Below, in pieces: positions 8,450-64,000 of a DNA stretch of 64,000 bases; within the stretch, counting starts at the first letter, position 1; each line of letters opens with the position of its first letter. Under the pieces are notes generated by a model, which saw nothing but the letters and a program-made list of their open reading frames with translations, ran no database searches and had not been told where the DNA came from. The position numbers and the translations under genes are program-made. The stretch comes from an uncultured Clostridia bacterium (GTDB lineage: Bacteria > Bacillota > Clostridia > Christensenellales > UBA1242): assembly GCA_934746715.1 (NCBI GenBank), contig CAKVFI010000001.1, forward strand, positions 135,653 to 199,652, in the 5' to 3' direction.

Positions 8450-9043
8450 TTACATTTCGCGGCGAGATTGAAGTGCTTTTGACAATGTCATTGCATCAGT
8501 ATATTCCAACTCGCTGCCCATGCTAACGCCTTGCGCAATACGTGTAACTTTAACACCAAGTGGTTTAAGCAAATTGGCAATATACATTGCTGTTGCTTCG
8601 CCTTCCACATCTGGATTTGTTGCCACAATAACTTCTGCAATATTTTCAGCTTGAACGCGTGCCAAAAGTGATTTTATGTTGATGTCATTTGGGCCTTTGC
8701 CTTCAAGTGGGTTAATCACTCCATGAAGGACATGATATGTGCCATTAAATTCACGCACCTTTTCAAGTGCTGTAACGTCTTTTGGCTCTTTAACAACGCA
8801 AATGATATTATCCTTTTTGGGACGAGAACAAATATCACAAATTTCTTTATCCGTAAAGTTTGCACACACTTTGCAATAATGAATGGTTTGCTTTGCATTA
8901 ACCATTGCATCGGCAAAATCTTTAACCTGATTTTCGTCCAAAGTTAACAGATAATAAGCATATCTTTGAGCAGTTTTTTTGCCAACACCCGGCAAACGAG
9001 AAAATTCGTTAACCAGCCTTTCCATAGAGTCAATTTGGTTCAT
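8450..9043 (-). CDS. recR: Recombination protein RecR
   Basis: HhH LPGVGKKTAQRYAYYLL, C4 zinc finger CKVCANFTDKEICDIC, Toprim region. Confidence 0.95.
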   Translation of the reverse strand: MNQIDSMERLVNEFSRLPGVGKKTAQRYAYYLLTLDENQVKDFADAMVNAKQTIHYCKVCANFTDKEICDICSRPKKDNIICVVKEPKDVTALEKVREFNGTYHVLHGVINPLEGKGPNDINIKSLLARVQAENIAEVIVATNPDVEGEATAMYIANLLKPLGVKVTRIAQGVSMGSELEYTDAMTLSKALQSRREM

Positions 9044-9381
9044 TACATCAACCCGCCAAGGCCGCCCATTGCGCCCATTTTGTCTTTGCTTAATTCATCT
9101 GCTTTTGCAATAGCGTCGTTAAAAGCAACAACAAGCAAATCTTCCAACATTTCAATATCGTCTGGGTCAACTGCATTTTTGTTGAGTTTAACAGACTTTA
9201 ATTCCTTTTTGCCTGTCATTGTAATTTGCACCATATCTCCACCAGCCTTGCCAACAACTTCTGCTTCTTCCAACTCTTGTTGCGCTTTTTCCATTTGCTC
9301 TTGCATTTTGCGTGCTTGTTGCATGATTGCGTTCATGTTCATTCCGCCACCAAAGCCGCCATTAAAACCACCATATGCCAT
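9043..9381 (-). CDS. ybaB: Nucleoid-associated protein YbaB/EbfC
   Basis: G-rich N-terminus, MQQARKMQEQMEKAQQELE, and the conserved dnaX-ybaB-recR order. Confidence 0.9.
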   Translation of the reverse strand: MAYGGFNGGFGGGMNMNAIMQQARKMQEQMEKAQQELEEAEVVGKAGGDMVQITMTGKKELKSVKLNKNAVDPDDIEMLEDLLVVAFNDAIAKADELSKDKMGAMGGLGGLM

Positions 9382-9402
9382 AATTTTATCTCCTAATTAG
9401 AT

Positions 9403-10890
9403 TTATTCTTTAAACTTGATTTTTGACTTAAATGCATCTTTTAAACTGTCCTTAACATCTTGAGTGGACACATTTGTGTTATCATATTCCACTTCGATAT
9501 CTTTAATGCTTTCGTCAAACAAATTTACTAACTCCAATATTACATTAATTCTATCTTTATTGTCAATCATTTGATATGCACCCAAATCATTTGTGTGGAT
9601 AACAAGGCGATTTAACCTTTTTTCAACTTTAACAACGCTTAATAATGCATTGGAAAGTGCAAACAAATTGCGTTCCTTTGCCTTGATGAGCACATTGCCC
9701 CAAACTCTGTCAGTTTCGTTGGAACTAACTGCCGCTGGTTCAGCTTTTGGTTGAACTGCTTGCACCGGTTGTTGAGCATTTAAAACAGTAGGTTGAGCTG
9801 GTAAAACGGTTGGCGTAACAACCAAATCTAGGCAAGTTGATTCAAACAAATTTTCTGGATTAATACTATATTTCAAATCTAATTCAACATCTGCAAAACG
9901 GCTGAACGCTGTTTTTAAATAATTGATGTCAAACATTGCAGCAATGTCGCTGTATGATGCAAATTCACCCGGCAAGATATCCAAGACTGAATAATCTCCA
10001 ACACCAACTTTAATCATAATCAAATTTTTAACAAAATCTGCCATTTCCTTGCAAAGCACTTGAATGTTTTTGCCAGTGCCCAAAGCACGTTTGATTGAAA
10101 CAAACAATTTGTTGATATCCTTGTTTGCGATGCTCACTAATATATCTTTGATGTTATCCTTGCTGGACAATCCAATCACACTTTCCGCTTGAGCATAAGT
10201 TATTTCGTTGTTGCAATACGCTGCAACACTATCCGCAATTGAAAGCATATCACGCACGCTGCCTTCCCCTGCTTTTGCAATGAGATGCAAAGATTTTTCA
10301 TCACACTTAATGCCGCGTTTTTCAAACACATTTTTAAGATGTTCACTTAACAAATCAACTGGCAAAAGTTTAAAGTCAAAGCGCATGCAACGGCTTAAAA
10401 TTGTTGCTGGCAATTTGTGAATTTCGGTTGTTGCCAAAATGAATATAACATGTTTTGGTGGCTCTTCAAGTGTTTTAAGCAATGCATTAAATGCACTGTC
10501 GGTTAACATATGCACTTCGTCCACAATGTAAACTTTGTATTTGCCAATAAGTGGTGGATATGCAACTTTTTCACGCAAATCACGGATTTCTTCCACGCGG
10601 TTGTTTGATGCTGCGTCAATTTCAAAAATATCTGTGTTTGGCTGGCTTAACGCAACACACTCTGCGCACATATCGCAAGGATTTCCGTCAACACTGTGAG
10701 TGCAATTGACAGCACGAGCAAAAATTTTGGCTGTGCTTGTTTTGCCAGTGCCACGAGGCCCACAAAACAAATAAGCATGCGACAAATTGCCAGTTTTAAC
10801 CTGATTTTTTAATGTTTGAATAATATAATCTTGCCCAACAACATCATCAAAATTTTTTGGTCTAAATTCACGATACAATGCCAAACTCAT
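9403..10890 (-). CDS. dnaX: DNA polymerase III subunit gamma/tau
   Basis: Walker A GPRGTGKTS, zinc module CTHSVDGNPCDMCAEC, DEVHML, SRC motif ILSRC. Confidence 0.93.
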   Translation of the reverse strand: MSLALYREFRPKNFDDVVGQDYIIQTLKNQVKTGNLSHAYLFCGPRGTGKTSTAKIFARAVNCTHSVDGNPCDMCAECVALSQPNTDIFEIDAASNNRVEEIRDLREKVAYPPLIGKYKVYIVDEVHMLTDSAFNALLKTLEEPPKHVIFILATTEIHKLPATILSRCMRFDFKLLPVDLLSEHLKNVFEKRGIKCDEKSLHLIAKAGEGSVRDMLSIADSVAAYCNNEITYAQAESVIGLSSKDNIKDILVSIANKDINKLFVSIKRALGTGKNIQVLCKEMADFVKNLIMIKVGVGDYSVLDILPGEFASYSDIAAMFDINYLKTAFSRFADVELDLKYSINPENLFESTCLDLVVTPTVLPAQPTVLNAQQPVQAVQPKAEPAAVSSNETDRVWGNVLIKAKERNLFALSNALLSVVKVEKRLNRLVIHTNDLGAYQMIDNKDRINVILELVNLFDESIKDIEVEYDNTNVSTQDVKDSLKDAFKSKIKFKE

Positions 10891-24775: not shown

Positions 24776-27700
24776 CTACAACGGCATCTTTCTTGACCTC
24801 AACCAAATAACAAATCCGACCAGCATCACAACTGCTACCGAGCCAATTACAATACCCGCTACAGCTTTGCTCGAAAGCCCTTTTCTTTGTTTTGCAGAGG
24901 CAATTAAAAATCCGCACTTTGTACATTTTACAGGGTTGTTTTTGTCTGGCGATTTTCTGTCGGGAATATGCTCTTCAAAATTCAACTTGTTATTGCAAGT
25001 AGCACAGGTGTCCCAATGCCCCGTACTATCTTTTCCGCCGTATTTTGTTATGTTGTGTGCAACAGTTGTTCCATACTCTTTTTTGCAACCTTCGCAAACC
25101 GCTTTTGTTGTGCATGTTGCCATTCCGCCAAAACAATTTGCTGTTTGGGTGTGGCTACTATCTGTTTTGCAGGTACGGGTGTGTGTGCCGTTTCCATTGC
25201 TTATCCACTCACCCCAATCGTGTATATGATTATCAACTTGCTTTGTATAATAGTATGTTACAGTATGACCGCTATCATTTACAACTTGATTTAGCCCCTC
25301 TACCCAACTTAATGTATGTCCATAAAAGGATTGAGCAGGCTCCCAGTTTAGATTAGTTCCAACAGCCATAGGAATTACAGCTTTTGATGCGTTAGGAATT
25401 TCACTGCCGTCTTCAAACTTGTACTCTATATTAACATTTGCGTACGACTGCGTTTCGGTATTGTCGTGCGATAAAACATTTCCTTTTTCATCAGTTATTT
25501 CAAAGGCAATGGTATCGCCCACTTTTAGGTCGGCATCTGTGGGAATTTGATAAATTATTGAGCAACTTTCTAGTCCTGAATCAAAAATACTGCCCTTATA
25601 TTCCAGAGCACCCTTTGGCCAAAACTTGCTTTTTTCCTCCCATACCGGAATAGTAAACATCTGTGAGATTTCGAGTCTTTGACCGCTCATTGTAGTTGCC
25701 ACACTTCCGTTTGTCCGCTTTATCCAAACCCTCATGGTAATGTAACGAGTTGTACTATCTGAAAGATTTTGAACAATTGTGCGTAGTTCAATTTTGTTGC
25801 CAGCCATGGTTGTGTTAAATTTGGTTTTGTATGCACCGCTGAGCAATACCGTGTTGCGATAATTTACAAAATTCACATATCCGTTATATGTAGTATCCGT
25901 ATAGGCAGACAAATCTGAATATTGATCAGTGCATTTTTTTACTTCGGGGTCTGCAACATATAGACTTTTGCCATTTACAAGTTGAGACAATCTCTTGTAT
26001 CCTTGCAATTTGCATACTTCACAAAACTGGTAGTTTGTATCGCGCATAAGACACTCATAACTAGAATTGTAAGTAGTATTAGTATCCGCCGTTTTACAAG
26101 TAAAAGTTTTTCTAAATCCTAGCAACTTTTTCCACTTTACTTGCTCTGGGTTATGCGTATATGACACATTTAGCGAAGTATAGTCCGTTGTTGGTGCGGC
26201 ACTGGTCATATATTCATCGCCAAGACCTAGTAATCCGTGACCAAACTCATGTGCAAAAGTCTGCTGAGCACGATAACTATCCGATGGAGTTATAAAATAA
26301 TGAAAGCCTGATTTTAAATTATTATATGCATCTCCAAAGTTTCGACTAGTATTAACCAGCAAAGCAAACTGATTTATATAACTATGTACATAGTCAAATT
26401 GTCGGTACATTTTTTCATCGTCCCAATACATTGTGTTGGGGTCTGTATTGTTGGGGATATGAGCATCATGGATTTGCTCTATAAATGTAGGACCAATACA
26501 CCTTTCAAAAATATGGTTCTTCCAAGGATTGCCAAGATTAGTTGATATAGACGAAGAATTATTAGAACCTACAACCACATCGAAAAATGTGCTTCCGCCG
26601 TTTTCAAAACTGGACTCCGACGCCGTGCAAAGAGCATACACATTAAACCTATCTGCAAAACTGCGGTAGGGTTCGTATTGCATTGCACCGTTCCACACTT
26701 TTTTTACATCGCTTATAAATTTTTGTTGTTGACTTTTGGTGTATCCTTCGCCACAAATAACAATTACCATATTTTCTGTGTCGCTTCTTGTTTTTTGAAT
26801 GGTGTATATAGGAATTGTTGGATTCGAGTATTTGCCATCTTTAGAATAATATGGTCCAAGGGCAAGCGTTAGCTTTTTGTAGGTGCTTATGTCCCACTCT
26901 TGATTTGGGTCATCTACTGGTTCTGCAACGGTATAATCGTCCTCAACCTTATTAGGAGCAGAGCCCACATATGGACTTGCCTTAGTTCCACCACCCGAAG
27001 TTGCCACATAATAGTCTGTATCAAGATAAAAGGCAGGCCTAACTCCAATATAACTGCGCTGTGGCGACTCTCTGCCTATTGTTCCATTGTTGTGAACATA
27101 CCGCATATCGTGATTACAATCGGTTACCGGAGTTCTTAACCAATATGGCCAACTTGCACCTTGCTCATTTATTCCGACATAATAACTGCCAAAGTTTTTC
27201 CAAACGGTATTTACCTGCTTAACATCAAGCAAAAAAACCTTTTCGGTTGAATTTTCGCCATAAACACTATCATAGTTTTGGACAACATTTTGAATATCTG
27301 TATTTATTTCTAAATCTGAACGACCATCTCCATCATAAATTCCTTGCTTATATTCTGGGTGCGATACAAGCGAACGCTGGGTAATTTTTTTCATTGTGGC
27401 AATTTCCGCCTTTAAAAAGCCATTTAAAAAACCCGCTTTTTGGTCGTAAGCATTTCCGTCCACATAGTTCTCTTTTGGAGGATTGCCACATAGCCACTTT
27501 ACCTTACCTGCTACGGCAGTAGAATTTAACCACGAACGCATATTGCTATCCTTCCAATAATTAGAGCCATAGGTGTCACGCATATAATTACGACTATGAG
27601 ATTTTGAACGGCTATTGTCGCTTGTAATAGCGTCATACGGAAGCATGTCTATTATGCTGTCGGCAAGCATAAGCGTTCCACTGTCATCAATGCTTACACA

Positions 27701-27937
27701 TCTCCATACAATGTCTTTGCCATTGTATTTGCCAAGAGTTATATAGTCGCCAAGGTTTACCTGTGTTGTTGTTTTTGTAACATTTTCTGACAAAAGACCA
27801 TGAGCATTTGCAACTTTTTGGAATTTTAAATTGTTTATGTTAGCACAAAAATTTACCATTCCGGCACTAAAAAAGCTAAGAACGCACATTATGGCAATTA
27901 TTATGGTGTTATTTATTTTTTTTAAAAAACTTTTCAT
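24776..27937 (-). CDS. Secreted, membrane-anchored M64-type (IgA-peptidase-like) zinc metalloprotease with N-terminal DUF6273-like domain
   Basis: Signal peptide. WRCVSIDDSGTLML...NYWKDSNMRSWLNS and YWLRTP...GVRPAFYLD. Zinc site FAHEFGHGLLGLGDEY. Cys/His-rich module. C-terminal TM AVAGIVIGSVAVVMLVGFVIWL plus RSRK. SD GAGGT. Confidence 0.75.
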   Translation of the reverse strand: MKSFLKKINNTIIIAIMCVLSFFSAGMVNFCANINNLKFQKVANAHGLLSENVTKTTTQVNLGDYITLGKYNGKDIVWRCVSIDDSGTLMLADSIIDMLPYDAITSDNSRSKSHSRNYMRDTYGSNYWKDSNMRSWLNSTAVAGKVKWLCGNPPKENYVDGNAYDQKAGFLNGFLKAEIATMKKITQRSLVSHPEYKQGIYDGDGRSDLEINTDIQNVVQNYDSVYGENSTEKVFLLDVKQVNTVWKNFGSYYVGINEQGASWPYWLRTPVTDCNHDMRYVHNNGTIGRESPQRSYIGVRPAFYLDTDYYVATSGGGTKASPYVGSAPNKVEDDYTVAEPVDDPNQEWDISTYKKLTLALGPYYSKDGKYSNPTIPIYTIQKTRSDTENMVIVICGEGYTKSQQQKFISDVKKVWNGAMQYEPYRSFADRFNVYALCTASESSFENGGSTFFDVVVGSNNSSSISTNLGNPWKNHIFERCIGPTFIEQIHDAHIPNNTDPNTMYWDDEKMYRQFDYVHSYINQFALLVNTSRNFGDAYNNLKSGFHYFITPSDSYRAQQTFAHEFGHGLLGLGDEYMTSAAPTTDYTSLNVSYTHNPEQVKWKKLLGFRKTFTCKTADTNTTYNSSYECLMRDTNYQFCEVCKLQGYKRLSQLVNGKSLYVADPEVKKCTDQYSDLSAYTDTTYNGYVNFVNYRNTVLLSGAYKTKFNTTMAGNKIELRTIVQNLSDSTTRYITMRVWIKRTNGSVATTMSGQRLEISQMFTIPVWEEKSKFWPKGALEYKGSIFDSGLESCSIIYQIPTDADLKVGDTIAFEITDEKGNVLSHDNTETQSYANVNIEYKFEDGSEIPNASKAVIPMAVGTNLNWEPAQSFYGHTLSWVEGLNQVVNDSGHTVTYYYTKQVDNHIHDWGEWISNGNGTHTRTCKTDSSHTQTANCFGGMATCTTKAVCEGCKKEYGTTVAHNITKYGGKDSTGHWDTCATCNNKLNFEEHIPDRKSPDKNNPVKCTKCGFLIASAKQRKGLSSKAVAGIVIGSVAVVMLVGFVIWLRSRKMPL

Positions 27938-36781: not shown

Positions 36782-37063
36782 TTAGATTTTTGCTTCTACT
36801 GTGGCAATCTTTCTGCCTCTAGCGTCACGTTTAAAACGAACAACGCCATCAATTAAAGCAAACAATGTGTAATCTTTGCCGCAACCAACGTTTGTTGATG
36901 GGTAGATTTTTGTGCCTCTTTGGCGAACAAGAATTGAACCTGCGTGAACAAATTGACCATCGCCAGCTTTAACGCCAAGACGCTTTGATTCACTATCACG
37001 ACCGTTCTTTGTGCTACCGCCACCTTTCTTGTGGGCAAACAATTGAATATTGAACTTAATCAT
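36782..37063 (-). CDS. rpmA: 50S ribosomal protein L27 with cleavable N-terminal extension
   Basis: [32 protein letters not shown]. Confidence 0.97.
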
Positions 37064-37065
37064 AG

Positions 37066-37377
37066 TTACTCCTTTATTTTAATGTACTTTTTGTAATCGT
37101 TTGCAATTTGTTTAAGAGCCAAATAAGCTGTTTTCATCAATATTTGTGCTTGACCATCTTCCGCTTCAACGCTTATGCGCAAAAATGGAATATTTTCATC
37201 AATTTGATAATCAACTTTTGCTTTAACCACTTCACGCAGACCATTCAATGTTGTTTGCATGATTGTGGAAACCGCACTGCACACAATATCTTGCCCAGCT
37301 TCTGCATATCCAGAATGACCTTTGGCTTGAATTGTGCAAATTGCATCGTTACTTTTTAAAATTGTTAAGTTAATCAT
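37066..37377 (-). CDS. prp: Ribosomal-processing cysteine protease Prp
   Basis: [18 protein letters not shown]; located between rplU and rpmA. Confidence 0.9.
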
Positions 37378-39177: not shown

Positions 39178-39969
39178 TCAACAACTACGTTTTAACATCT
39201 TTTTTATTTTTCCAAACAATCCACGATATTTGTAAGTGCAATCAAACAACTTATTTTCGCCTGTTAAAACATTTTCTGCCAAAATATCAAAAGCACGATT
39301 ATATGCCAAGCGCCTATCACAAACATTTTCACTGCAACTTGTGATAACCGCATCATCATCTGGAATAACACCACCAAAATCAATACGTAATGATTTGCCA
39401 ATGTCGTAAACATCAAACATAAGTTTGTCTTGAATTAAATCTCCACGAGCACGATTGATAACAAATCTTTTGTTTGTTATGCCATAGCTTGAAAGGATTG
39501 TTACCACCTTATCAGCATCGCGAATACTGCTTAAATGAGGAGTTGTTACAACCAATGCTTCGTCCGCGCAACTAACCGCTCGCTTAAAACCAGCATCAAT
39601 GCCAGCTGGGCAATCAATCAACACAAAATCAAATGATTTTGACAATTCAAAAACAAGCCTTTTAATGTCCGCAAGTTGAATTGACAAATTATGATTTAAA
39701 TCACCAGTTGAAAGCAAATATAAAAGTGGAAAATAGTCATCTTGAACAAGCGCTTCTTTTAATCGGCAGCGACCTTCAAGCACGTCTAAAAAGGTGTAAA
39801 CAACCCTATCTTCCAAATTCATCACAACATCAAGATTGTTAAGTCCAATATCCATATCAATCAAACAAACGCGCAGATTTCTTTTGGCAAGTTGTCTGCC
39901 CAAATTTGCCGTAACAGTTGTTTTGCCGACTCCACCCTTGCCAGATGTCATAACAATAACACGTGCCAT
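39178..39969 (-). CDS. minD: Septum site-determining ATPase MinD
   Basis: Deviant Walker A SGKGGVGKTT, DCPAGI, C-terminal amphipathic tail. SD GGAGGGG. Confidence 0.93.
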   Translation of the reverse strand: MARVIVMTSGKGGVGKTTVTANLGRQLAKRNLRVCLIDMDIGLNNLDVVMNLEDRVVYTFLDVLEGRCRLKEALVQDDYFPLLYLLSTGDLNHNLSIQLADIKRLVFELSKSFDFVLIDCPAGIDAGFKRAVSCADEALVVTTPHLSSIRDADKVVTILSSYGITNKRFVINRARGDLIQDKLMFDVYDIGKSLRIDFGGVIPDDDAVITSCSENVCDRRLAYNRAFDILAENVLTGENKLFDCTYKYRGLFGKIKKMLKRSC

Positions 39970-40215
39970 AATTCCCCTCCTAAATTTTTATCAATTTAAC
40001 ACAAAACAAAAAAAATACAAACGCGAAAAATCGCTTATTTTTGCCTTCGCGTTTTTTCGATAAATATTTGTAAATTATTTGTTTTTTTATTATTTTGATA
40101 AATATTTTATAAATAATAAAAAATTATTTTAAATTATATTTTTACAACAAAAAAATGCCAAAAAATTAATTTTTTTGACATTTTTAATTATTTAATATTA
40201 ATTTTTAATATTTTT

Positions 40216-41211
40216 TTACAATGTAATTTTCAAAAAATCTTTATCGCCCGCCAAAAGTTTGCCAAGCCCCAACACAACCGCGTCAGCAGGTTCGTCTGCA
40301 ACTATGATAGGAAAATCTATTTTGCTTTTTGCATATTCATATAAACCTGCAATTTTGCTGCCGCCGCCAACAAACACAATTGCAGTGTTGTAAACATCAT
40401 TTGCAACTTCTGCTGGCAGTGATTTTAATACATCGTTAATACGCTCAAAAATTGCATCATAAACATTGCTGATTGCCAAGCGAATGTCGTTTGCAGTGAT
40501 TGACGCACGTGCCAAATTGTTGTTTTCTGTTGTGCCAACAAAATCATATGAATACATATCTCTGTTGTAAAGTGAAGCAACTTCGTTTTTTATGCTTTCT
40601 GCCGTTTGTTTGTCAATTTTCAAATCGTAATTGTCGGCAATAAATGTCACAATACTTTTATCCATATCTTCGCCACCCAAAAAGTACATTCTGCCAAAAG
40701 TAAAATCATACTCGTTAAGCACAGAAATATCTGTTACATTTTTGCCAATATCAACAACCATAATATGTTTGTGGGAATCAAAATCTAAACTTGATTGAAT
40801 GCAAACGCTGTTAAAGACAAACTCAACTTTGTTAACACCGCACTCACGCAAAACCTTTTTGATGAGCAAAAGTTGTTGTTCGTTTAATGCGCTAGGCACA
40901 GCCACAAGAGCATAAATGTTTGTTATAAACTTGTTGTCTTCAACAACATTTTCTATTATTTTGCCAAGCAAAAGGCGTGCCATTTTTTCATCAACTATTG
41001 TGCTGTTTTCAATTGGACGATAAACAGCATAGTTTGTTGATTTTGAATTAAACAATTTTTCCGCCTTTTTGCCAATTGCATGCACTTTAAAATTTTTTCC
41101 ATTTGCAGTGACAGCAAGGTACGCAGGTTCTTTTGCAACTATACCGCAACCCTTTTTATAGACAATAATTTCATTGCTACCAAATTTAAGACCCAAATCA
41201 ACCCTAAACAT
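40216..41211 (-). CDS. MreB/Mbl-family actin-like protein with degenerate nucleotide-binding motifs
   Basis: C-terminal VFVGGGSKIAGL...VADEPADAVVLGLGKLL matches MreB. Phosphate-1 reads DLGLKFGS and phosphate-2 reads DIGKNVTD instead of DLGTANT and DIGGGTTE. Confidence 0.65.
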   Translation of the reverse strand: MFRVDLGLKFGSNEIIVYKKGCGIVAKEPAYLAVTANGKNFKVHAIGKKAEKLFNSKSTNYAVYRPIENSTIVDEKMARLLLGKIIENVVEDNKFITNIYALVAVPSALNEQQLLLIKKVLRECGVNKVEFVFNSVCIQSSLDFDSHKHIMVVDIGKNVTDISVLNEYDFTFGRMYFLGGEDMDKSIVTFIADNYDLKIDKQTAESIKNEVASLYNRDMYSYDFVGTTENNNLARASITANDIRLAISNVYDAIFERINDVLKSLPAEVANDVYNTAIVFVGGGSKIAGLYEYAKSKIDFPIIVADEPADAVVLGLGKLLAGDKDFLKITL

Positions 41212-54903: not shown

Positions 54904-55779
54904 ATGTTTAAATGGTTAAAAAATTTATTCAATCCTGTAAAATTAATTCCAAAAGATGTGGAAAACGGTTTGATGACTTCAATGTACTACACAATCAAAT
55001 TGGGTGAAAAATTGAACGTGCCCGACAATTGTGTTTGTTTTTTGTCATACAAAGACAGGCTCTACGCCAAATTTGACGCTGGTGAACATGTTTTGGATGA
55101 ATCATGTTTGGCAAATTTAACCGCAAAACAAGCCGGCAGTGTTAAAAACAAAAAAACTGTTAAATTTGATTTGTTTTTTGTTAACTTAAACAATTTTTCT
55201 TACCCGACTTCACAAAAAGAAGTTGTGCCAGTTGACAAAAAACTTTGCAAGTTGGAACTTAAAACAAACTTTTGTTGCAATGTTGTTGATGCAGTTAAAT
55301 TTCAAAAATACGCTTTGTCTTTTTATGCATTAATCCGCCCAATTGATGCTCAACACCTTGTGCAAAGTTTTGTTGAAGAAAACATAAACAAATACTATTT
55401 AAAGTGCTCATTAGCCACTCCAATTGACAATTTAGTTGAAGCAGAAAATTTGAAAGCGTTTTTAAACAAAAAAGGTGAAAAAATTGGTTTAAATTTCTCC
55501 AAATTGGAACTCTCAATCTGGAACAAATCCAAACAAATTGACACTCAAAGCAAAAAATTTTATTTTGAAAATATTGTGCAAAACAAACCAAATGAAAGCA
55601 CAACATCTTCAACCTCAAACATTCAGCAAACAGTTGACAAAACTAAAGAAAAGGAATATTCTTTAGATGTTGACAACAACACACAAGAAAAGGTCGAACC
55701 ACAAGAAATTTGCCCAATTTGCAAGTGCAAACGCATTTCAAATGCTCCATTTTGCCACAAATGTGGGTTTAAATTTTAA
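54904..55779 (+). CDS. SPFH/Band-7-like (YdjI-type) protein with C-terminal zinc ribbon (tentative)
   Basis: The layout resembles Bacillus YdjI: N-terminal beta-rich region with FDLFFVNLNNFSY, then C-terminal CPICKC...CHKCG. Confidence 0.4.
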   Translation: MFKWLKNLFNPVKLIPKDVENGLMTSMYYTIKLGEKLNVPDNCVCFLSYKDRLYAKFDAGEHVLDESCLANLTAKQAGSVKNKKTVKFDLFFVNLNNFSYPTSQKEVVPVDKKLCKLELKTNFCCNVVDAVKFQKYALSFYALIRPIDAQHLVQSFVEENINKYYLKCSLATPIDNLVEAENLKAFLNKKGEKIGLNFSKLELSIWNKSKQIDTQSKKFYFENIVQNKPNESTTSSTSNIQQTVDKTKEKEYSLDVDNNTQEKVEPQEICPICKCKRISNAPFCHKCGFKF

Positions 55780-55805: not shown

Positions 55806-55991
55806 ATGAAGTTTAAAAAGACAGATATCATTGCAACTGTGCTTGAAAAACATCCAAAAGGTGAAGAAATTTTAACAAAATTTGGTTTTCATTGCTTGTA
55901 CTGCCCTTGCAGCCAAATGGAAACACTTGAAGAAGCATGTGAAGTTCATGAAATCAACATTAATGAATTGTTAAAAGCCTTAAATGCGTAA
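55806..55991 (+). CDS. DUF1858 / hybrid-cluster-protein-associated redox disulfide domain protein
   Basis: DIIATVLEKHPKGEEILTKFGFHCLYCPCSQMETLEEACEVHEININELL; SD AAGGAG. Confidence 0.7.
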   Translation: MKFKKTDIIATVLEKHPKGEEILTKFGFHCLYCPCSQMETLEEACEVHEININELLKALNA

Positions 55992-55992
55992 C

Positions 55993-56026
55993 AAAAAAAC
56001 ACTCATAAATTTGAGTGTTTTTTTAT
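55993..56026. terminator. Bidirectional intrinsic terminator
   Basis: A-run, AACACTCA-taaatt-TGAGTGTT, T-run. Confidence 0.7.
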
Positions 56027-56069
56027 TTTTTGCAAGCAGTAACAAAACTATTTTAATTAAAATTGTTTT

Positions 56070-58862
56070 TTACTTTCTCTTTTTATTTTTTATTTTTGCA
56101 TTTTTTGCCAATTGGATTTTTGATGCTTCAAGTTTTGCGTTTTCTTTTGCAATTTCGTCATCAATTTCCTTTAAGAATGCATCAATATCATTAATTTCAG
56201 TTGGTTTTAATTCCTTTTTTGGCCTGCTAATTGGTTTAGTTTCTTGTTTTTCTTCAACTTGCTTTTTAGGTCTGCCAACTGATTTTTTTGCAGGTTGTTC
56301 AACTTCCGCTTCAACCTTTTTTGGTCTACCACGTTTGCCTGCTGGCTTAACTTCTGTTGTTGATTCAGTTGATTCAACTGGTTCTACAACTTTTTTAGGT
56401 CTACCAACTGACTTTTTAACTGGTTGTTGTTCAACTTGTTCAGGTTGCTCAGGTTGCTCTTTGCGAGGACGACCACGTTTGCCCGCTGGTTTTGTTGCAA
56501 CCTCTTCTGCAACAGCCTTGCGTGGGCGGCCAGCTTTGCGTTTTGCTGGTTGCTCAACTTCAGCTTCAACCTTTTTTGGTCTACCGCGTTTGCCTGTTGG
56601 TTTAACTTCTGTTGTTGATTCAGTTGATTCAACTGGTTCTACAACCTTTTTTGGTCTACCAACTGATTTTTTAACTGGTTGTTGTTCAACTTGTTCAGGT
56701 TGCTCTTTGCGTGGGCGGCCACGTTTGCCCGCTGGTTTTGTTGCAACCTCTTCTGCAACAACCTTGCGTGGGCGGCCTGGTTTCTTTTTCTCAACAGGTT
56801 CTGTTACGATTTTACGTGGGCGACCTGGCTTGCCCTTTGGTTTGCTTTCTTCCATTTGAACAGTGGATTCATCAACTGCATTTTGTTCAGTTGAATTTTC
56901 TTCAGCATTTTCCCCCGAATCTGCTGGCTGTTCGTTTTGTTGTTGGTCTTGAGTGTTAACTTGTTCCAACTCTGGTTTTACTTTGTTAGCATCATCTTCA
57001 TCGTCTAAATAATTGAAGTTGTAGTTTGCTGTGTCTTGTGGTTGCTCTTCTTGCTTTGGGCTTTGCTGTTCTTCATCTAAATAGTTGAATGTATAATTTT
57101 GTTGATCAACATTATTTTTTTCTGCTGGTTGTTGTTCTGGTTGTTCAGCTTGTTCGTTATTTGATTGGTCATCAAATGAATAAACTTGGTCAATATGTTC
57201 ATCGGCTGGAGCTTGCTCTGCCTGATTTTGGTCATCATAATAATTTGCATTTTCATCATATTGTTGATTGCCATCATATTGTTGATTGTTATCATAATTA
57301 TTGTCAGCATAATTGTAATTGTCATATTGTTCAGGTTGCTGCTCTTGTTCGGCTGGTTGTTGTTCAACTTTTTCTTGTTTAGATTTTTTGTTTTTGCCTG
57401 TTGCACGATTAACTTCATCAGAAACGCGAGAAATTATTTGTTCACGTTCTTGAATTTTTTGTTGATAATCTGCATCGATTGTTGAAATTTGTTCTTTTAG
57501 TTGTTCATTTTCGTCATAAAGGCCATTAACTTCTTGTTCTTTATGCTTCAACTTTTCTTCCAAATTTTTGATGTTGTCTTGAACTTTGGTGTATTTATCT
57601 GATTCGCGTTCTTCAACCACACGCAAGGCTTCGTCATACACTTTGCCACTGTAAGTATCAAACTCGCTCATCATAGATTTTTCAAGCACATTTCTTGCTT
57701 TTTTGATTTGATTTTCAAGGTCAGCAATTTCTGCTTGGTAGGTTTCCAAAACTTTTTTGTGCCTATCTGTTGCAGTGTCGTAATCGCGCTCCAAATTGCG
57801 TTGACGGTCAAGTTCTTGTTGTTGTTGCTTTTTCAAGTAGTTGGCTTCAATGCTTGAAGTAACTTCTTCCAATTGTTGCTTAAAGTTTTCAAATGTTTCT
57901 TTGCTGACTTGCATTTGACGTTGATATTCTTTGGTTGTTTCACGGAAGGCATTTTCTTCTTGATAAATTTCGTTGTTAACTTGTTCCATGTCTTGCATAA
58001 GTTTTTTACGCTCTGCAATGTAGTTTTCAGCTTCTGTCATGGCGCGTTCCAAAACAAGTGAACGCTCTACACCTGCTTCATCAAAGTTGAATTTTTCATG
58101 TTCAACATTGCGCAAACGAGCACGCTCCAACTCTTTCTTTTCTTCTTCTGCACGCTTTTGAAGGTATGCATACAAAATTGGAATGCCGCGTTTAATTTCG
58201 TTTTTGTCAAACAACACTTCATAGTCAACATAATCTGGCAATGTTTCAGTTGCTTTGTCGATGTTAACTTCAAAATATTGATAGTTTGAATACAAGTCGC
58301 TGATGATTGCATTGTGTTTGATGTTAAAGAAAATTGTAACTAAATAATTAACCATCAAAATCAAAACTGGGCAAAGAAGGCAGTGTTGCAAAATGTCGGC
58401 AAACCTATCTTCATATGAGCAATAGATGTTTAAAAGCAAACAAACACCTGCAAAAATATATGCCAAGATATTCATAATTTGAACATCGCGAGTGTATGTA
58501 CTATTTTTAAGAGGGGTTGCAACGCAGTTTTCAAATGACATATATTTGCTTGCTTTATCTTCCCTATAAAGCACATATTGTTGCCATTGTTTGCGAAGTT
58601 GTTTTGGCACACGGCTGGATTTCATTCTGTTGTTAAAAGCAATCAAATTGTCCTCATTAATTTGAGGATTATCCAAAAAATAATTGTTGAACATATCAAC
58701 TGCTTTAATCAAGCGAGATTCGTAAGAATGAGATGTTGAAATAATAACACAAAAAATTGTGAACAAAAACAAAGCACTGAAAATAATAAAATATCGATTG
58801 TAATTTAAATAATTGGCAAATGAAGAAAAGAATTTGTCAACTGCCTCGAATATATTACTCAT
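56070..58862 (-). CDS. Membrane-anchored coiled-coil protein with acidic Q/N/D/Y-rich linker and a C-terminal array of about ten AT-hook motifs
   Basis: N-terminal TM helices (YFIIFSALFLFTIFCVIIS; ILAYIFAGVCLLLNIY; CPVLILMVNYLVTIFF), about 300 aa of heptad-like E/K/Q sequence, a low-complexity NYDNNQQYD region, then PGRPRK, KRGRPRK and VGRPKK repeated. Confidence 0.7.
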   Translation of the reverse strand: MSNIFEAVDKFFSSFANYLNYNRYFIIFSALFLFTIFCVIISTSHSYESRLIKAVDMFNNYFLDNPQINEDNLIAFNNRMKSSRVPKQLRKQWQQYVLYREDKASKYMSFENCVATPLKNSTYTRDVQIMNILAYIFAGVCLLLNIYCSYEDRFADILQHCLLCPVLILMVNYLVTIFFNIKHNAIISDLYSNYQYFEVNIDKATETLPDYVDYEVLFDKNEIKRGIPILYAYLQKRAEEEKKELERARLRNVEHEKFNFDEAGVERSLVLERAMTEAENYIAERKKLMQDMEQVNNEIYQEENAFRETTKEYQRQMQVSKETFENFKQQLEEVTSSIEANYLKKQQQQELDRQRNLERDYDTATDRHKKVLETYQAEIADLENQIKKARNVLEKSMMSEFDTYSGKVYDEALRVVEERESDKYTKVQDNIKNLEEKLKHKEQEVNGLYDENEQLKEQISTIDADYQQKIQEREQIISRVSDEVNRATGKNKKSKQEKVEQQPAEQEQQPEQYDNYNYADNNYDNNQQYDGNQQYDENANYYDDQNQAEQAPADEHIDQVYSFDDQSNNEQAEQPEQQPAEKNNVDQQNYTFNYLDEEQQSPKQEEQPQDTANYNFNYLDDEDDANKVKPELEQVNTQDQQQNEQPADSGENAEENSTEQNAVDESTVQMEESKPKGKPGRPRKIVTEPVEKKKPGRPRKVVAEEVATKPAGKRGRPRKEQPEQVEQQPVKKSVGRPKKVVEPVESTESTTEVKPTGKRGRPKKVEAEVEQPAKRKAGRPRKAVAEEVATKPAGKRGRPRKEQPEQPEQVEQQPVKKSVGRPKKVVEPVESTESTTEVKPAGKRGRPKKVEAEVEQPAKKSVGRPKKQVEEKQETKPISRPKKELKPTEINDIDAFLKEIDDEIAKENAKLEASKIQLAKNAKIKNKKRK
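56300..56800. repeat. Intragenic tandem duplication (255 and about 246 bp) encoding the AT-hook block
   Basis: CAACTTC(C/A)GCTTCAACCTTTTTTGGTCTACC begins each copy, at 56300 and 56555. The copies differ by scattered substitutions and one 9-nt (PEQ) indel. Confidence 0.85.
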
Positions 58863-59235
58863 AAAAACCCCTTTAATTAATTAAAAATTAATTTTATTTG
58901 TTATCGTTATTATAACACAATCAAATGTTAAATACTAATATTTTTTGATATTTTTTTTAATTTTTTTAAATTTTTTTACAAATTAATTTTTTATTAAAAA
59001 TCAATTAAAAATGCTATTTTTAAGTATTTTAAAGGAGTTTTTTGATAAATTAATTTTTTAAATGAACAAATTATATAACCTAAAATTTTTTTGAATTTTT
59101 AAAAATTACATTAATATTATTAATATATAAATAAATCTATAAAACCTTATTTAAATATTATGGCAATAAAAATGCCTTAAATTAATTGTAAATTTAAAAT
59201 AATTTGTGTATAATATTAAAACAAAAGGAGCAAAT

Positions 59236-61699: not shown

Positions 61700-64000
61700 T
61701 TATGGCTCAACAACTTTTTCAACAAGTTTTAAAACCTTGTTTGTTGCGTCAAAACTGAAAACATATTCCTTGCCTTCTGCTTTGTCCACCAAAACATTTT
61801 GATTGTTTAAAATGTCAAGATTGATGTCGGTTAAAACTGTTTCGCTGTCAAACAAAACATATTCGTCGTTAATGGACATTTTTGTTAATGCGCCATCATG
61901 ATTGATATCTTTAACTTTTTTAATGTAAACCGGCTTTTCGTTTGAAGATGTGAAAGTTAAATTTTTTGAATTTTTTGAAATTGCAAACACTTCGCTTGAA
62001 TAACCCAAATTGTACATCCAAAAATCAAAACTTGAAACTTGTGCGCCAACCAAATACAAAATTGCGTAATCTGTTTTGCAATCTTTAGGCAAATCGTAAT
62101 TGCCAACAATGTTCATCAATCCAAAAGTTGCTGTTTTAGATTCTATAATCGCACTATCTTGCACGCAACCAATGCCATTGATGTTAAACGTGCCATTTAC
62201 AACAAAATTTTTGTTTTGCGCGTCGTAGCCGTAATTTGTTGCATAGGTTTTGTTGCTGTCAGTTAATCCAACTATCAAGCCAAACACTTTGCGAGGAGTG
62301 AGCCTCGATTCATTTTCGCCTGATTGTTTGATTGTGTAATAAGAACTTAAATCTAAAATGAAGTTGTCGACCAAAGATTTTGTTAAACTTAAATTGCTGA
62401 AGTTTTTAAATTTAACATCAAAGGTTGAACTTGCCATTTTGATTAAATCGTCTTCAGTTAGCCTTATTGCACCACTGCCACCATAATATGACCTATTTGC
62501 AAATGTTGTTGTGTTGTAATCTGCACCAACAATTCCGCCAACAAAGTAACCAGAAAGTTTGCCATCAACTGTGATATTTGAAATGTAACCATTTAAATTT
62601 CTGCCAACAGCACCGGCAACAATTGATTGATTTGTTTTGGCAATTTCCATGTAAATCGAGGCATTTTCAATCAAACCATTAAAGTTAAAGCCAACCAAAC
62701 CAGCTGACACATTTGTTGAATTGTTGAACAAAGTGCTTGAATTTAATTTAACCTTTGCATTGCTGATTATACCGCGGTTTTCACCAACCAAACCTGCAGA
62801 ATATTGATACCCTGCAAAGTTGCCGCCAGTGATGAGCGCACTTACATCAACAAGTTTGGTGTTTTTGCCAACAAGACCAACAGTTGCACCAACAGTTTCG
62901 CCTGCCATAATCAAGTTTCCGTCAACTGACAAATGCCTTACAAATTGCAAGTCTTTGTCCAAATCAACATCAATATTTGTTTTGCTTTGATTTGTTATGC
63001 CATCAACAATGCCAAACACTCCGCCTGCATAATAAACTGAACTTAAATTGCTTGAAACAAAACCATTGTTTTGATAATTTGCCATAAACACACTATAACT
63101 ATTGTCTTGTTGAGAACGGCTTGAATATGCACCAACATTTGAACTGATGCCGTCAATGTCATATCTGCCACGCACAAAGCCCACTGCTCCGCCAACTGCA
63201 TTGCCACCAACAATGGTTAAATCTTGTGCTTCTACTTGAATATTGTAAAGATTGTAGTTTTCACTAATGCCTGCAAGTGAACCAACTGCTTGTGTGCGAG
63301 TTGCGTTTACGCTTGTTGGAAGCAAGTGAATGTTTCTAACACTGCTTTCAACCGACAAATTGTTAACTGAATTGAGTGAACCAAACAAACCAATATTTGA
63401 AAGATTTTGAGATGAGTAAACTTTAAAGTTTTTGATATCCATATTGTTACCCTGCAAGTTGCCATTAAATACACAACTGCTGGTTGATGGATTTTCGTAA
63501 ACAGAAGCAAAATCAATATCATTAATCATGCGGAAGTAATACTTTGTGTTGCCGTAATATGAATTTGCTGGGTCTGATTGCCCCAAATAATAATCCCAAG
63601 TTGCAAGATTGTAAATCAAAATTGGGTTTTGTTTGTCGCCAAAATTGTTTGCAACAACATTATATTTATATTCACGGCTTACAACAACCCCCAAATCATT
63701 TTTAACTTCAACAATTTTAAGTTGCAAGTTTTTAAGTCCGTAATAAGTTTGTGGATATTGCTTGTTTTCATCCCCTGCTGGCAAAGCAGAACCTGTAAAC
63801 TCAACCTTTTCTTGTGTTGCAACAAGTTTTGGAAGCCCAACTGATGTTTTTGTCCACACTGCGCTGGTGTTGTTGCCAAACATAAATGTTGGATAACTTT
63901 CCTTGTAAGTGCGGTTTAAAACTGAAATTGTTGTTAAACCTGCAACATTGTTTTTGTAACCTGCCACGTCTTGTTTGATTTCGTAGCAGTTTTCAATGCC
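61700..64000 (-). CDS. Large surface protein with multiple GLUG-type repeats, N-terminus beyond the window
   Basis: The frame is open to nt 64000. Repeated G-x-x-G motifs: IGLFGSL, VGSLAGI, VGGAVGFV, AGGVFGIV, SAGLVGEN, SAGLVGFN, VAGAVGRN, VGGIVGAD. Confidence 0.65.
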   Translation of the reverse strand, partial: GIENCYEIKQDVAGYKNNVAGLTTISVLNRTYKESYPTFMFGNNTSAVWTKTSVGLPKLVATQEKVEFTGSALPAGDENKQYPQTYYGLKNLQLKIVEVKNDLGVVVSREYKYNVVANNFGDKQNPILIYNLATWDYYLGQSDPANSYYGNTKYYFRMINDIDFASVYENPSTSSCVFNGNLQGNNMDIKNFKVYSSQNLSNIGLFGSLNSVNNLSVESSVRNIHLLPTSVNATRTQAVGSLAGISENYNLYNIQVEAQDLTIVGGNAVGGAVGFVRGRYDIDGISSNVGAYSSRSQQDNSYSVFMANYQNNGFVSSNLSSVYYAGGVFGIVDGITNQSKTNIDVDLDKDLQFVRHLSVDGNLIMAGETVGATVGLVGKNTKLVDVSALITGGNFAGYQYSAGLVGENRGIISNAKVKLNSSTLFNNSTNVSAGLVGFNFNGLIENASIYMEIAKTNQSIVAGAVGRNLNGYISNITVDGKLSGYFVGGIVGADYNTTTFANRSYYGGSGAIRLTEDDLIKMASSTFDVKFKNFSNLSLTKSLVDNFILDLSSYYTIKQSGENESRLTPRKVFGLIVGLTDSNKTYATNYGYDAQNKNFVVNGTFNINGIGCVQDSAIIESKTATFGLMNIVGNYDLPKDCKTDYAILYLVGAQVSSFDFWMYNLGYSSEVFAISKNSKNLTFTSSNEKPVYIKKVKDINHDGALTKMSINDEYVLFDSETVLTDINLDILNNQNVLVDKAEGKEYVFSFDATNKVLKLVEKVVEP

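Follow-up and report, generated by a model that had tools for sequence, protein, structure and literature searches.

A possible membrane-to-DNA tether of gut Clostridia with a ZorA-like membrane domain and an AT-hook tail

What might a bacterial protein that begins in the membrane and ends in an array of AT-hooks do for the cell? The question is raised by a gene on the reverse strand (positions 56070–58862) of a 64,000-nucleotide stretch of the genome of an uncultured Clostridia bacterium (assembly GCA_934746715.1, contig CAKVFI010000001.1, positions 135,653 to 199,652), and this whole stretch is called the window below. An earlier note on the window had described the open reading frame (ORF) and listed the elements of its architecture, and all of these were found on re-analysis. 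The product of 930 amino acids (aa) has five parts: three transmembrane (TM) helices, a heptad coiled coil, an acidic spacer, an array of AT-hooks, and a conserved terminal helix. The explanation that we favor, and to which we give about an even chance, is that the protein performs a housekeeping role, tethering DNA to the membrane from a ZorA-type scaffold that is probably oligomeric. This explanation draws on sequence comparisons and structure models.

The membrane domain and its relationship to ZorA

The hydropathy profile of the protein has three TM peaks, with centers near residues 25, 129, and 160, and AlphaFold modeled residues 1–255 with a predicted local distance difference test (pLDDT) score of 88.2 and a predicted TM-score (pTM) of 0.75. 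Three to four TM helices had been proposed before; hydropathy and AlphaFold both support three, and the fourth was not found. The loop between TM1 and TM2, which is among the most conserved parts of the family, contains 13 lysine and arginine residues, compared with 2 in residues 1–23. Because of these positive-inside counts, and because the ZorA-type topology has a cytoplasmic tail, the stalk and the hooks are predicted to be cytoplasmic, and the AT-hooks are predicted to share a compartment with the DNA. An array facing the outside of the cell, which the earlier note had named as an outcome that would speak against a DNA tether, is not predicted; the lysine and arginine counts and the ZorA-like fold both place the hooks in the cytoplasm.

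ZorA is the A subunit of ZorA5B2, the ion-driven anti-phage motor of Zorya, and belongs to the MotA/ExbB/TolQ superfamily. Besides three TM helices, it has a membrane-proximal domain in the cytoplasm, and its coiled-coil tail, a pentamer, extends ~70 nm into the cytoplasm (PMC11946911). When a profile of the N-terminal domain from 33 family members was compared with all PDB sequences, the only matches below E = 0.2 were to E. coli ZorA (best E = 0.017), and the alignment spans the motif preceding TM2, TM2, TM3, and the region beyond. With the model of residues 1–255 as the query, the top four Foldseek matches were E. coli ZorA entries (E = 0.009–0.015, probability 1.00, TM-score 0.52/0.48–0.54), followed by TolQ, Shewanella ZorA, ExbB, and MotA. 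A 108-sequence family alignment was also compared with four plasmid ZorA sequences using hhalign. The result was a probability of 89.3%, P = 2.1e-6, and a score of 50.1 over 163 collinear columns (query 34–204 against ZorA 25–219); the controls, a reversed template and 40 column-shuffled ones, scored 10–20, with a maximum of 30. The loop motifs LRxxWxxY and R..PS..(F/Y).S...V..P were aligned with ZorA residues ~80–127, including ZorA Pro126: "LR.QWQQY.L" of the family stands opposite "LRHAWNEFKESL" of ZorA, and "R...PS.Y.S...C...P" opposite "RATAPSASFFSEQQLVDIP". A second database search with the N-domain profile returned short fragments only and no new names.

The protein resembles ZorA in its three TM helices, in the folded cytoplasmic domain between TM1 and TM2, in a TM3 that runs into a long cytoplasmic coiled-coil tail, and in the loop motifs LRxxWxEY and R..PS..F.S...V..P, and ZorA is its best PDB match by both profile and structure. 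This is the layout of the A subunit of a 5:2 motor, with three TM helices, a cytoplasmic domain between TM1 and TM2, and a predicted cytoplasmic C-terminus. The N-terminal three-TM domain and its cytoplasmic loop thus look like a ZorA homologue, which we call remote because the GxxGTxxG motif, the hallmark of TM2, is absent. The differences from ZorA extend to the ion filter, in which Thr147 and Ser184 of ZorA align with Ala138 and Leu169 here. In the family as a whole, positions 134 and 141 of TM2 are serine or threonine in ~61% of members, and the small or polar face of TM2 at 134/138/141/145 is only moderately conserved. Unlike ZorA, whose tail of ~500 aa ends in a chemoreceptor-like tip, the protein has a tail of ~260 aa that leads into the acidic spacer and the AT-hooks, and its gene belongs to the conserved core of one Clostridia lineage, without a ZorB partner, zorC, zorD, or zorE genes, or a defense island at the loci examined. 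The earlier note had recognized no named family. The family is indeed an unnamed one with a conserved architecture, but its membrane domain has a remote relative in ZorA, and this kinship changes the likely oligomeric state and opens other mechanisms.

The cytoplasmic tail and its variation in the family

The region next to the membrane, residues 181–266, has a column identity of 0.6–0.7 in 108 sequences, with the motif D.A..T.P.YVDYE.LF..EI..GIP.L..YL.KRA ... F.F...G..G.L.L.RAM and the invariant residues P209, D213, L217, F218, E222, I223, and L230. A second AlphaFold model, in which pLDDT was mostly >90, contains helices at residues 228–254, 267–333, and 337–487. The power of period-3.5 hydrophobicity was 73–79 in both long helices and ~10 in shuffled sequences (p < 0.002), and no such heptad signal was detected in the acidic spacer. 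The coiled coil of about 300 aa described previously is therefore a heptad coil, as claimed, but its length is ~260 aa. When the stalk model was searched with Foldseek, only generic coiled coils (Smc, chemoreceptor, Vipp1) were returned, which was uninformative. Together, AlphaFold, hydropathy, and heptad analyses, which had been suggested as checks, uphold the architecture, and the fold matches that of ZorA.

Beyond the stalk, the net charge changes from −33 in residues 500–700 to +21 in residues 700–880, and these charge blocks bear out the acidic low-complexity spacer reported ahead of the hooks. An HMGA-like domain has been defined as several AT-hooks with a contiguous, highly acidic region (PMC2919716), and here the acidic block at residues 488–671 directly precedes the hooks. 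The ten GRP cores and one SRPKK listed in the earlier note were found with exactly the flanks given there: KPGRPRK at residues 680 and 696, KRGRPRK at 715 and 797, VGRPKK at 735, 820, and 863, KRGRPKK at 760 and 845, AGRPRK at 778, and the degenerate SRPKK at 881. When the 260-aa tail was shuffled 20,000 times, the mean number of GRP[KR] cores was 0.04 and the maximum 3, compared with the 10 observed, four of which are RGRP. The Pfam AT_hook model (PF02178) matched above its threshold (29.7 bits against a cut-off of 17.4, E = 3.6e-7) and was the only Pfam match of the protein; the NCBIfam scan gave no match.

The number of hooks varies between close strains and changes quickly. In the window, two direct repeats (56232–56450 and 56487–56705, 85% identity) mark a 255-bp tandem duplication. 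Two alleles that are identical to the window protein over residues 1–502 lack one 82-aa unit with four hooks; these alleles (P0001 and P0002) have 852 aa with 6 hooks and 841 aa with 7 hooks. The DNA that encodes RGRPR is nearly self-complementary, and an antisense ORF of 291 aa (55984–56859, forward strand) that overlaps the array reads "LRGRP" five times. We consider this ORF almost certainly spurious, a by-product of the repeat-coding DNA.

To describe the family, we searched with residues 1–502 and obtained 368 proteins, of which the best 120 have 64–100% identity. Nearly all of these are 650–900 aa long, most have a recorded AT_hook match, and the few that carry names are recorded as "hypothetical protein", from Ca. 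Onthoplasma faecigallinarum or from metagenome-assembled genomes (MAGs) of Clostridia or Clostridiales. An exhaustive search of 1.84 billion cluster representatives (50% identity) with residues 1–235 yielded 195 proteins with E ≤ 0.001 and identities as low as 28%; the matches listed appear to be family members only. In a scan of one genome per species, 283 genome loci carry the family. Among the matches listed, all come from gut or fecal MAGs assigned to Clostridia, Christensenella, Christensenellales, Ca. Onthoplasma (classed under Christensenellales), or Lachnospiraceae, the last probably mislabeled. The gene was found once in every source genome except the MAG SRR6425769_bin.90, in which two contigs carry a family gene each, called at 654 and 596 aa; either a strain mixture in the bin or a real duplication could account for this.

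The same architecture is kept in 112 full-length representatives: TM helices near residues 25, 130, and 160 are followed by a helical, mildly acidic region, a strongly acidic block, in most a basic block, and the terminal helix. Conservation is highest in the TM1–TM2 loop and in the stretch that begins where TM3 ends and continues to residue ~360. The sequence and length of the spacer vary, and in 100 of the 112 representatives the acidic block lies ahead of the basic one. Hooks, 2–11 per protein, occur in 49 of them. At least 10 others have strongly basic tails of lysine, alanine, proline, and threonine at this position, with a net charge of +21 to +36 per 120 aa. One of these distant members, P0188, passes the Pfam threshold for HC2, the histone H1-like nucleoprotein (40.8 bits), and two more fall below the cut-off (E = 5e-6 to 9e-5). 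The terminal helix is conserved in near and remote members alike, also where hooks are missing.

The acidic spacer also contains short recurrent motifs. In the window protein, FNY(L)D(E/D) motifs at residues 591–597 and 614–620 (~57003–57092) recur in four other members (P0007, P0092, P0120, and P0046), and they look like short linear motifs that could bind a partner. In distant members (P0146, P0166, P0172, P0156, and the proteins at loci L080 and L082), the spacer contains YDEYGGYYDxxGxYxYxxGxYYDxxGNYxDxxGG, for which there was no Pfam match; "NYDNNQQYDGNQQYDENANYYDD" in the window spacer may be a degenerate form of this tyrosine, glycine, and aspartate motif.

Gene flanks and genomic context

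The coordinates of the gene, its parts, and its flanks are given in Table 1. The earlier note had credited the gene with its own terminators on both sides. A single terminator-like hairpin was detected, and the gene has it in common with the convergent DUF1858 gene. On the upstream side, 343 nt separate the gene from a divergent neighbor, and because this neighbor is divergent, the region is a promoter region and not a terminator. The promoter and ribosome-binding site (RBS) given in the table are putative and were assigned by eye; a consensus promoter scan did not list this promoter, the −35 element of which is poor. The promoter region is dense in A-tracts at 58941–58985 (aaaaaaatttaaaaaaattaaaaaaaatatcaaaaaa), an ideal substrate for AT-hooks, and autoregulation of the gene through them is conceivable.

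Table 1. Features of the gene and of the addBA genes in the window (−, reverse strand; ·, both strands)
Feature	Coordinates	Strand	Remarks
Whole gene	56070..58862	−	Single ATG-started ORF, 930 aa and stop codon; full-length homologues share the architecture
N-terminal amphipathic helix, residues 1–20	58803..58862	−	AlphaFold helix 2–18; predicted non-cytoplasmic; equivalent to the short periplasmic N-terminus of ZorA
TM1, residues 21–44	58731..58802	−	Hydropathy peak; AlphaFold helix 21–44; aligns with ZorA TM1 in hhalign
Cytoplasmic loop domain, residues 45–121	58500..58730	−	Conserved motifs NPxI..NL..FN..MK..P..LR..WQ.Y.L.R...PS.Y.S...C...P
TM2, residues 122–148	58419..58499	−	Hydropathy; AlphaFold helix 122–148
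TM3, residues 154–180	58323..58403	−	Hydropathy; AlphaFold helix 154–207; Pro165 in 95% of the family
Membrane-proximal cytoplasmic region, residues 181–266	58065..58322	−	Most conserved block
Heptad coiled-coil stalk, residues 267–487	57402..58064	−	Helices 267–333 and 337–487; conserved IE.NY..KQ motif
Acidic Q/N/D/E/Y-rich disordered spacer, residues 488–671	56850..57401	−	Net charge ~−33; two FNYLD(E/D) motifs
Ten AT-hooks and SRPKK, residues 672–885	56208..56849	−	Includes the 255-bp tandem duplication
Terminal heptad helix, residues 886–930	56073..56207	−	DIDAFLKEIDDEIAKENAKLE..., basic KIKNKKRK at the end
Terminator-like hairpin, bidirectional	55993..56024	·	13-bp stem between an A-run and a T-run; common to the convergent DUF1858 gene
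Likely promoter and RBS (by eye)	58868..58985	−	A-tract-rich; extended −10 TGTTATAAT (58917–58909); RBS AAAGGGG (58874–58868)
addB, 1008 aa	19434–22460	−	~37 kb from the gene
addA, 1129 aa	16144–19533	−	~37 kb from the gene

In the clade of the window, the conserved gene order is giant protein, queH, alr, Zn-peptidase (the divergent neighbor), the gene itself, DUF1858, a zinc-ribbon hypothetical gene, and an LtaS-like sulfatase. In distant members, the gene lies directly after addB–addA in the same direction, with gaps of 46–274 nt. This adjacency was found in four of the five deep representatives sampled and at 10 of the 80 best-matching genome loci, and some of these loci are close to dnaB or to the S10 ribosomal operon. 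At the loci examined, no defense genes or defense island were found near the gene. The Zorya gene set (zorC, zorD, zorE, or zorFG) was not found there either; the neighbors are alr, queH, the Zn-peptidase gene, the ltaS-like gene, addBA, dnaB, and ribosomal protein genes.

No gene resembling ZorB, MotB, ExbD, or TolR was found within ~6–8 kb at ~90 loci or in the 64-kb window, and a search of the window for ORFs that pair one N-terminal TM helix with an external domain gave none. True zorA genes, at the plasmid loci that we retrieved, are followed by zorB, motB, or ompA-family genes. As candidates for a B subunit, we rejected a PRC-barrel neighbor at two loci (L086 and L093), which is soluble, and the adjoining lipoprotein and 88-aa TM protein at some loci, which do not resemble MotB or ExbD.

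Several other genes of the window deserve a record. Beyond the hairpin lie the DUF1858 gene (55806–55991, forward strand), which encodes a hybrid-cluster-associated redox disulfide domain, and, before it, a gene for a 291-aa hypothetical protein with a C-terminal zinc ribbon, CPICKC...CHKCG (54904–55779, forward strand). In the distant genomes of L086 and L093, a pair at the same position, likewise near the family gene, is annotated Band_7_1 (+DZR) and DUF1858. The giant-protein fragment at 61700–63967 (reverse strand) runs off the end of the window without a Pfam match; its counterparts in related genomes have 3400–3700 aa and are always upstream of queH. A 1053-aa protein encoded at 24776–27937 (reverse strand), with N- and C-terminal TM segments, Peptidase_M64 (IgA peptidase), and DUF6273, is likely to be a surface protease. 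From N-terminal sequences only, we read recR and dnaX at 8450–10890, minD and an mreB-like gene at 39178–41211, and L27 with an N-terminal extension beside a Prp-like protease at 36782–37377, all on the reverse strand and all ordinary housekeeping genes for a Firmicute.

Candidate functions and their implications

In the tether that we favor, the membrane domain would oligomerize like ZorA, ExbB, and TolQ, probably as a pentamer, and the stalks would bundle into a rod of ~35 nm (245 helical residues × 0.15 nm). The end of the rod would display several flexible arms, so that a pentamer of the window allele would carry 50 hooks. Each hook would reach into the minor groove of DNA at AT-rich sites, of which a genome with a GC content of ~33% offers many, and multivalency would make the attachment of the chromosome to the membrane strong yet dynamic. 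The acidic block may serve as a spacer, or may modulate hook binding as a competitor, like the acidic regions of HMGA and CarD. In the cell, the protein would likely anchor or organize the nucleoid, and the ancestral placement after addB–addA hints at a link to DNA-end processing. We regard the membrane domain as probably oligomeric, a ZorA-derived scaffold rather than a demonstrated motor, and because no B subunit was found and the ion-filter positions of ZorA are alanine and leucine here, it is probably not an ion-driven motor. The housekeeping character follows from the near single-copy occurrence of the gene, its conserved synteny with alr, queH, the Zn-peptidase gene, and the ltaS-like gene, its position after addB–addA in distant members, and the lack of defense genes nearby.

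Several points weigh against this tether. We infer the DNA binding, the oligomeric state, and the localization alike. With regard to ZorA, the Pfam MotA_ExbB (PF01618) and PADLOC ZorA models matched none of the 33 diverse members, even at E up to 10, and the matches that these members did give in the Pfam and PADLOC scans (DUF2207_C, Tetraspanin, and PycTM) were scattered TM noise. The family profile was not significantly similar to E. coli TolQ or ExbB (P = 0.09–0.15), which share with ZorA the TM2 motif that the family is missing. Conservation is lowest in the disordered tail and in the TM helices, the latter being the least conserved N-terminal part. About one-third of the representatives have no strongly basic tail, yet keep the N-terminal domain, the stalk, and the terminal helix, so DNA tethering is perhaps an add-on and not the core function of the family. 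AT-hook-like peptides can also bind RNA, and the synteny with addBA may reflect shared ancestry only.

Some of the same evidence can be read differently. The protein could be the DNA-holding part of a Zorya-like hub coupled to AddAB, in which a ZorA-type base senses or marks a site at the membrane and the hooks capture AT-rich DNA that is linear or invading, or the ends of a broken chromosome, for the helicase-nuclease AddAB, forming a fixed chromosomal hub of defense or repair. The closest relative of the N-terminal domain is a defense protein, and Zorya pairs ZorAB with the DNA-binding ZorC and the nuclease ZorD (PMC11946911); here, the DNA-binding part would be fused to the tail. The position immediately downstream of addB–addA in four of the five deep branches also favors a hub. 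We counted for it, too, that in B. subtilis the slot after addA is filled by sbcDC, another coiled-coil DNA-end complex. However, the genes for ZorB to ZorE and a defense-island context were not found at the examined loci, the neighbors are housekeeping genes, and the gene appears to be vertically inherited and near-universal in its clade. In the clade of the window it lies far from addBA, and AddAB is a universal repair enzyme, so that the adjacency may be inherited gene order; we consider such a hub rather improbable. An active, ion-driven motor of the 5:2 type, with a B subunit that is encoded elsewhere or is unrecognizable, and with a rotating stalk that twists, spools, or moves the DNA held by the hooks, appears very unlikely to us. 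In fold and tail architecture the protein corresponds to ZorA, a subunit of a rotary motor driven by protons, and the small or polar face of TM2 and the near-invariant proline of TM3 would suit a motor, but the B-subunit-like gene missing from ~90 loci, the replaced filter residues, TM helices that are poorly conserved, unlike those of true stators, and the unmatched motor models of Pfam and PADLOC all argue against it. A broader version, in which the family is an unrecognized branch of 5:2 motors with a ZorA-type pentamer in a core cellular job and a tail that grips DNA directly, is distinctly unlikely. If it were true, with a B subunit elsewhere or another drive, a rotating stalk might translocate DNA at the membrane, or twist it or reel it in; together with AddAB, whose genes were ancestrally adjacent, this would amount to built-in, Zorya-like handling of broken or foreign DNA, and a common origin of the ZorA of Zorya and of the housekeeping tether would be suggested.

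The remaining alternatives concern the tail. It may not bind DNA at all, and the protein could be an organizer of the membrane or cytoskeleton in division, sporulation, or envelope stress, whose low-complexity blocks, acidic and basic, would associate with each other, for example in a condensate, or with RNA, polyphosphate, or anionic lipids. The members without a strongly basic tail are consistent with this, as is the high conservation of the loop in the cytoplasm and of the proximal stalk, which hints at a partner protein, and an acidic-aromatic block followed by a basic one may be typical of self-associating disordered regions. We nevertheless hold such an organizer to be unlikely: GRP cores flanked by lysine and arginine are a specific motif for the DNA minor groove, the H1- and Hc2-like nucleoid-protein replacements in relatives point to DNA and not to lipid, and the hook motif is strictly kept even though the hook number shifts by tandem duplication. 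Finally, the protein might be exposed on the surface or secreted, as a low-complexity protein with an extracellular tail. Three TM helices with the N-terminus inside would put the C-terminus outside, and this orientation is the sole point in its favor. The lysine and arginine counts on the two sides of TM1 contradict it, the ZorA, ExbB, and TolQ matches have cytoplasmic C-termini, and Pfam and NCBIfam scans found no signal peptide, sortase motif, or cell-wall-binding domain in the protein, so we regard an extracellular tail as extremely improbable.

The putative tether can be compared with several known systems. Its tail resembles the C-terminus of M. xanthus CarD, and eukaryotic HMGA1a, in having a highly acidic region beside multiple AT-hooks of the RGRP type, and in both the CarD family and this one orthologues swap the hooks for a histone H1-like tail of lysine, alanine, and proline. 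According to the account given in PMC2919716, the HMGA-like domain of CarD is interchangeable with the H1-like domain of its orthologue with function kept (Garcia-Heras et al., 2009). By analogy, this swap offers the strongest argument at hand for a DNA-binding role that the variable tails here may share. CarD is, however, a transcription factor that is soluble, has four hooks, and binds RNA polymerase through its N-terminal domain, whereas the protein described here is embedded in the membrane, has ten hooks, and shows no similarity to CarD_CdnL_TRCF. With RicO of S. aureus, RocS of S. pneumoniae, and RacA/DivIVA and Noc of B. subtilis, it would share only the proposed job of bridging DNA and membrane. 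Those proteins use folded, site-specific domains of the helix-turn-helix (HTH) or ParB type and attach peripherally through an amphipathic helix or DivIVA, whereas our protein is anchored by integral TM helices and would reach DNA through a long stalk and minor-groove hooks of low specificity, and Pfam and NCBIfam scans found in it neither HTH or ParB-type domains nor similarity to known tethers. The Hc2-like repeats of lysine, alanine, threonine, and proline at the hook position in distant members (P0188) recall chlamydial Hc2 and other H1-like proteins; the window protein has AT-hooks and no Hc2 repeats, and Hc2 is small, soluble, and condensing. Eukaryotic ELYS/MEL-28 offers an analogy only: through an AT-hook it connects chromatin with a membrane-associated assembly at the nuclear envelope, but it contains just one AT-hook region, is not a membrane protein itself, and shows no homology.

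A paper from 2010 called the domains of CarD and its orthologue the only prokaryotic HMGA-like domains (PMC2919716). In literature of incomplete coverage, we found no membrane-anchored bacterial AT-hook protein and no ZorA relative lacking ZorB, which is weak evidence that the combination of a ZorA-like anchor and an AT-hook tail has not been described before. HMGA-type binding through AT-hooks is barely documented in bacteria, and here a ten-fold array is found on an integral membrane protein, in a whole family of common gut Clostridia. The relatives of ZorA described so far are known only as ion-driven motor parts, paired with a B subunit, in phage defense. If the favored explanation is correct, a vertically inherited relative without ZorB and with a DNA-binding tail would widen the uses of the ZorA scaffold and would bear on the origin of Zorya. 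Attachment of the chromosome to the membrane is known in only a few model species, through RacA, RocS, RicO, and Noc, and the family is a testable candidate for this role in a lineage in which known tethers were not detected, one that would rely on a different physical principle, a long stalk with multivalent hooks of low specificity.

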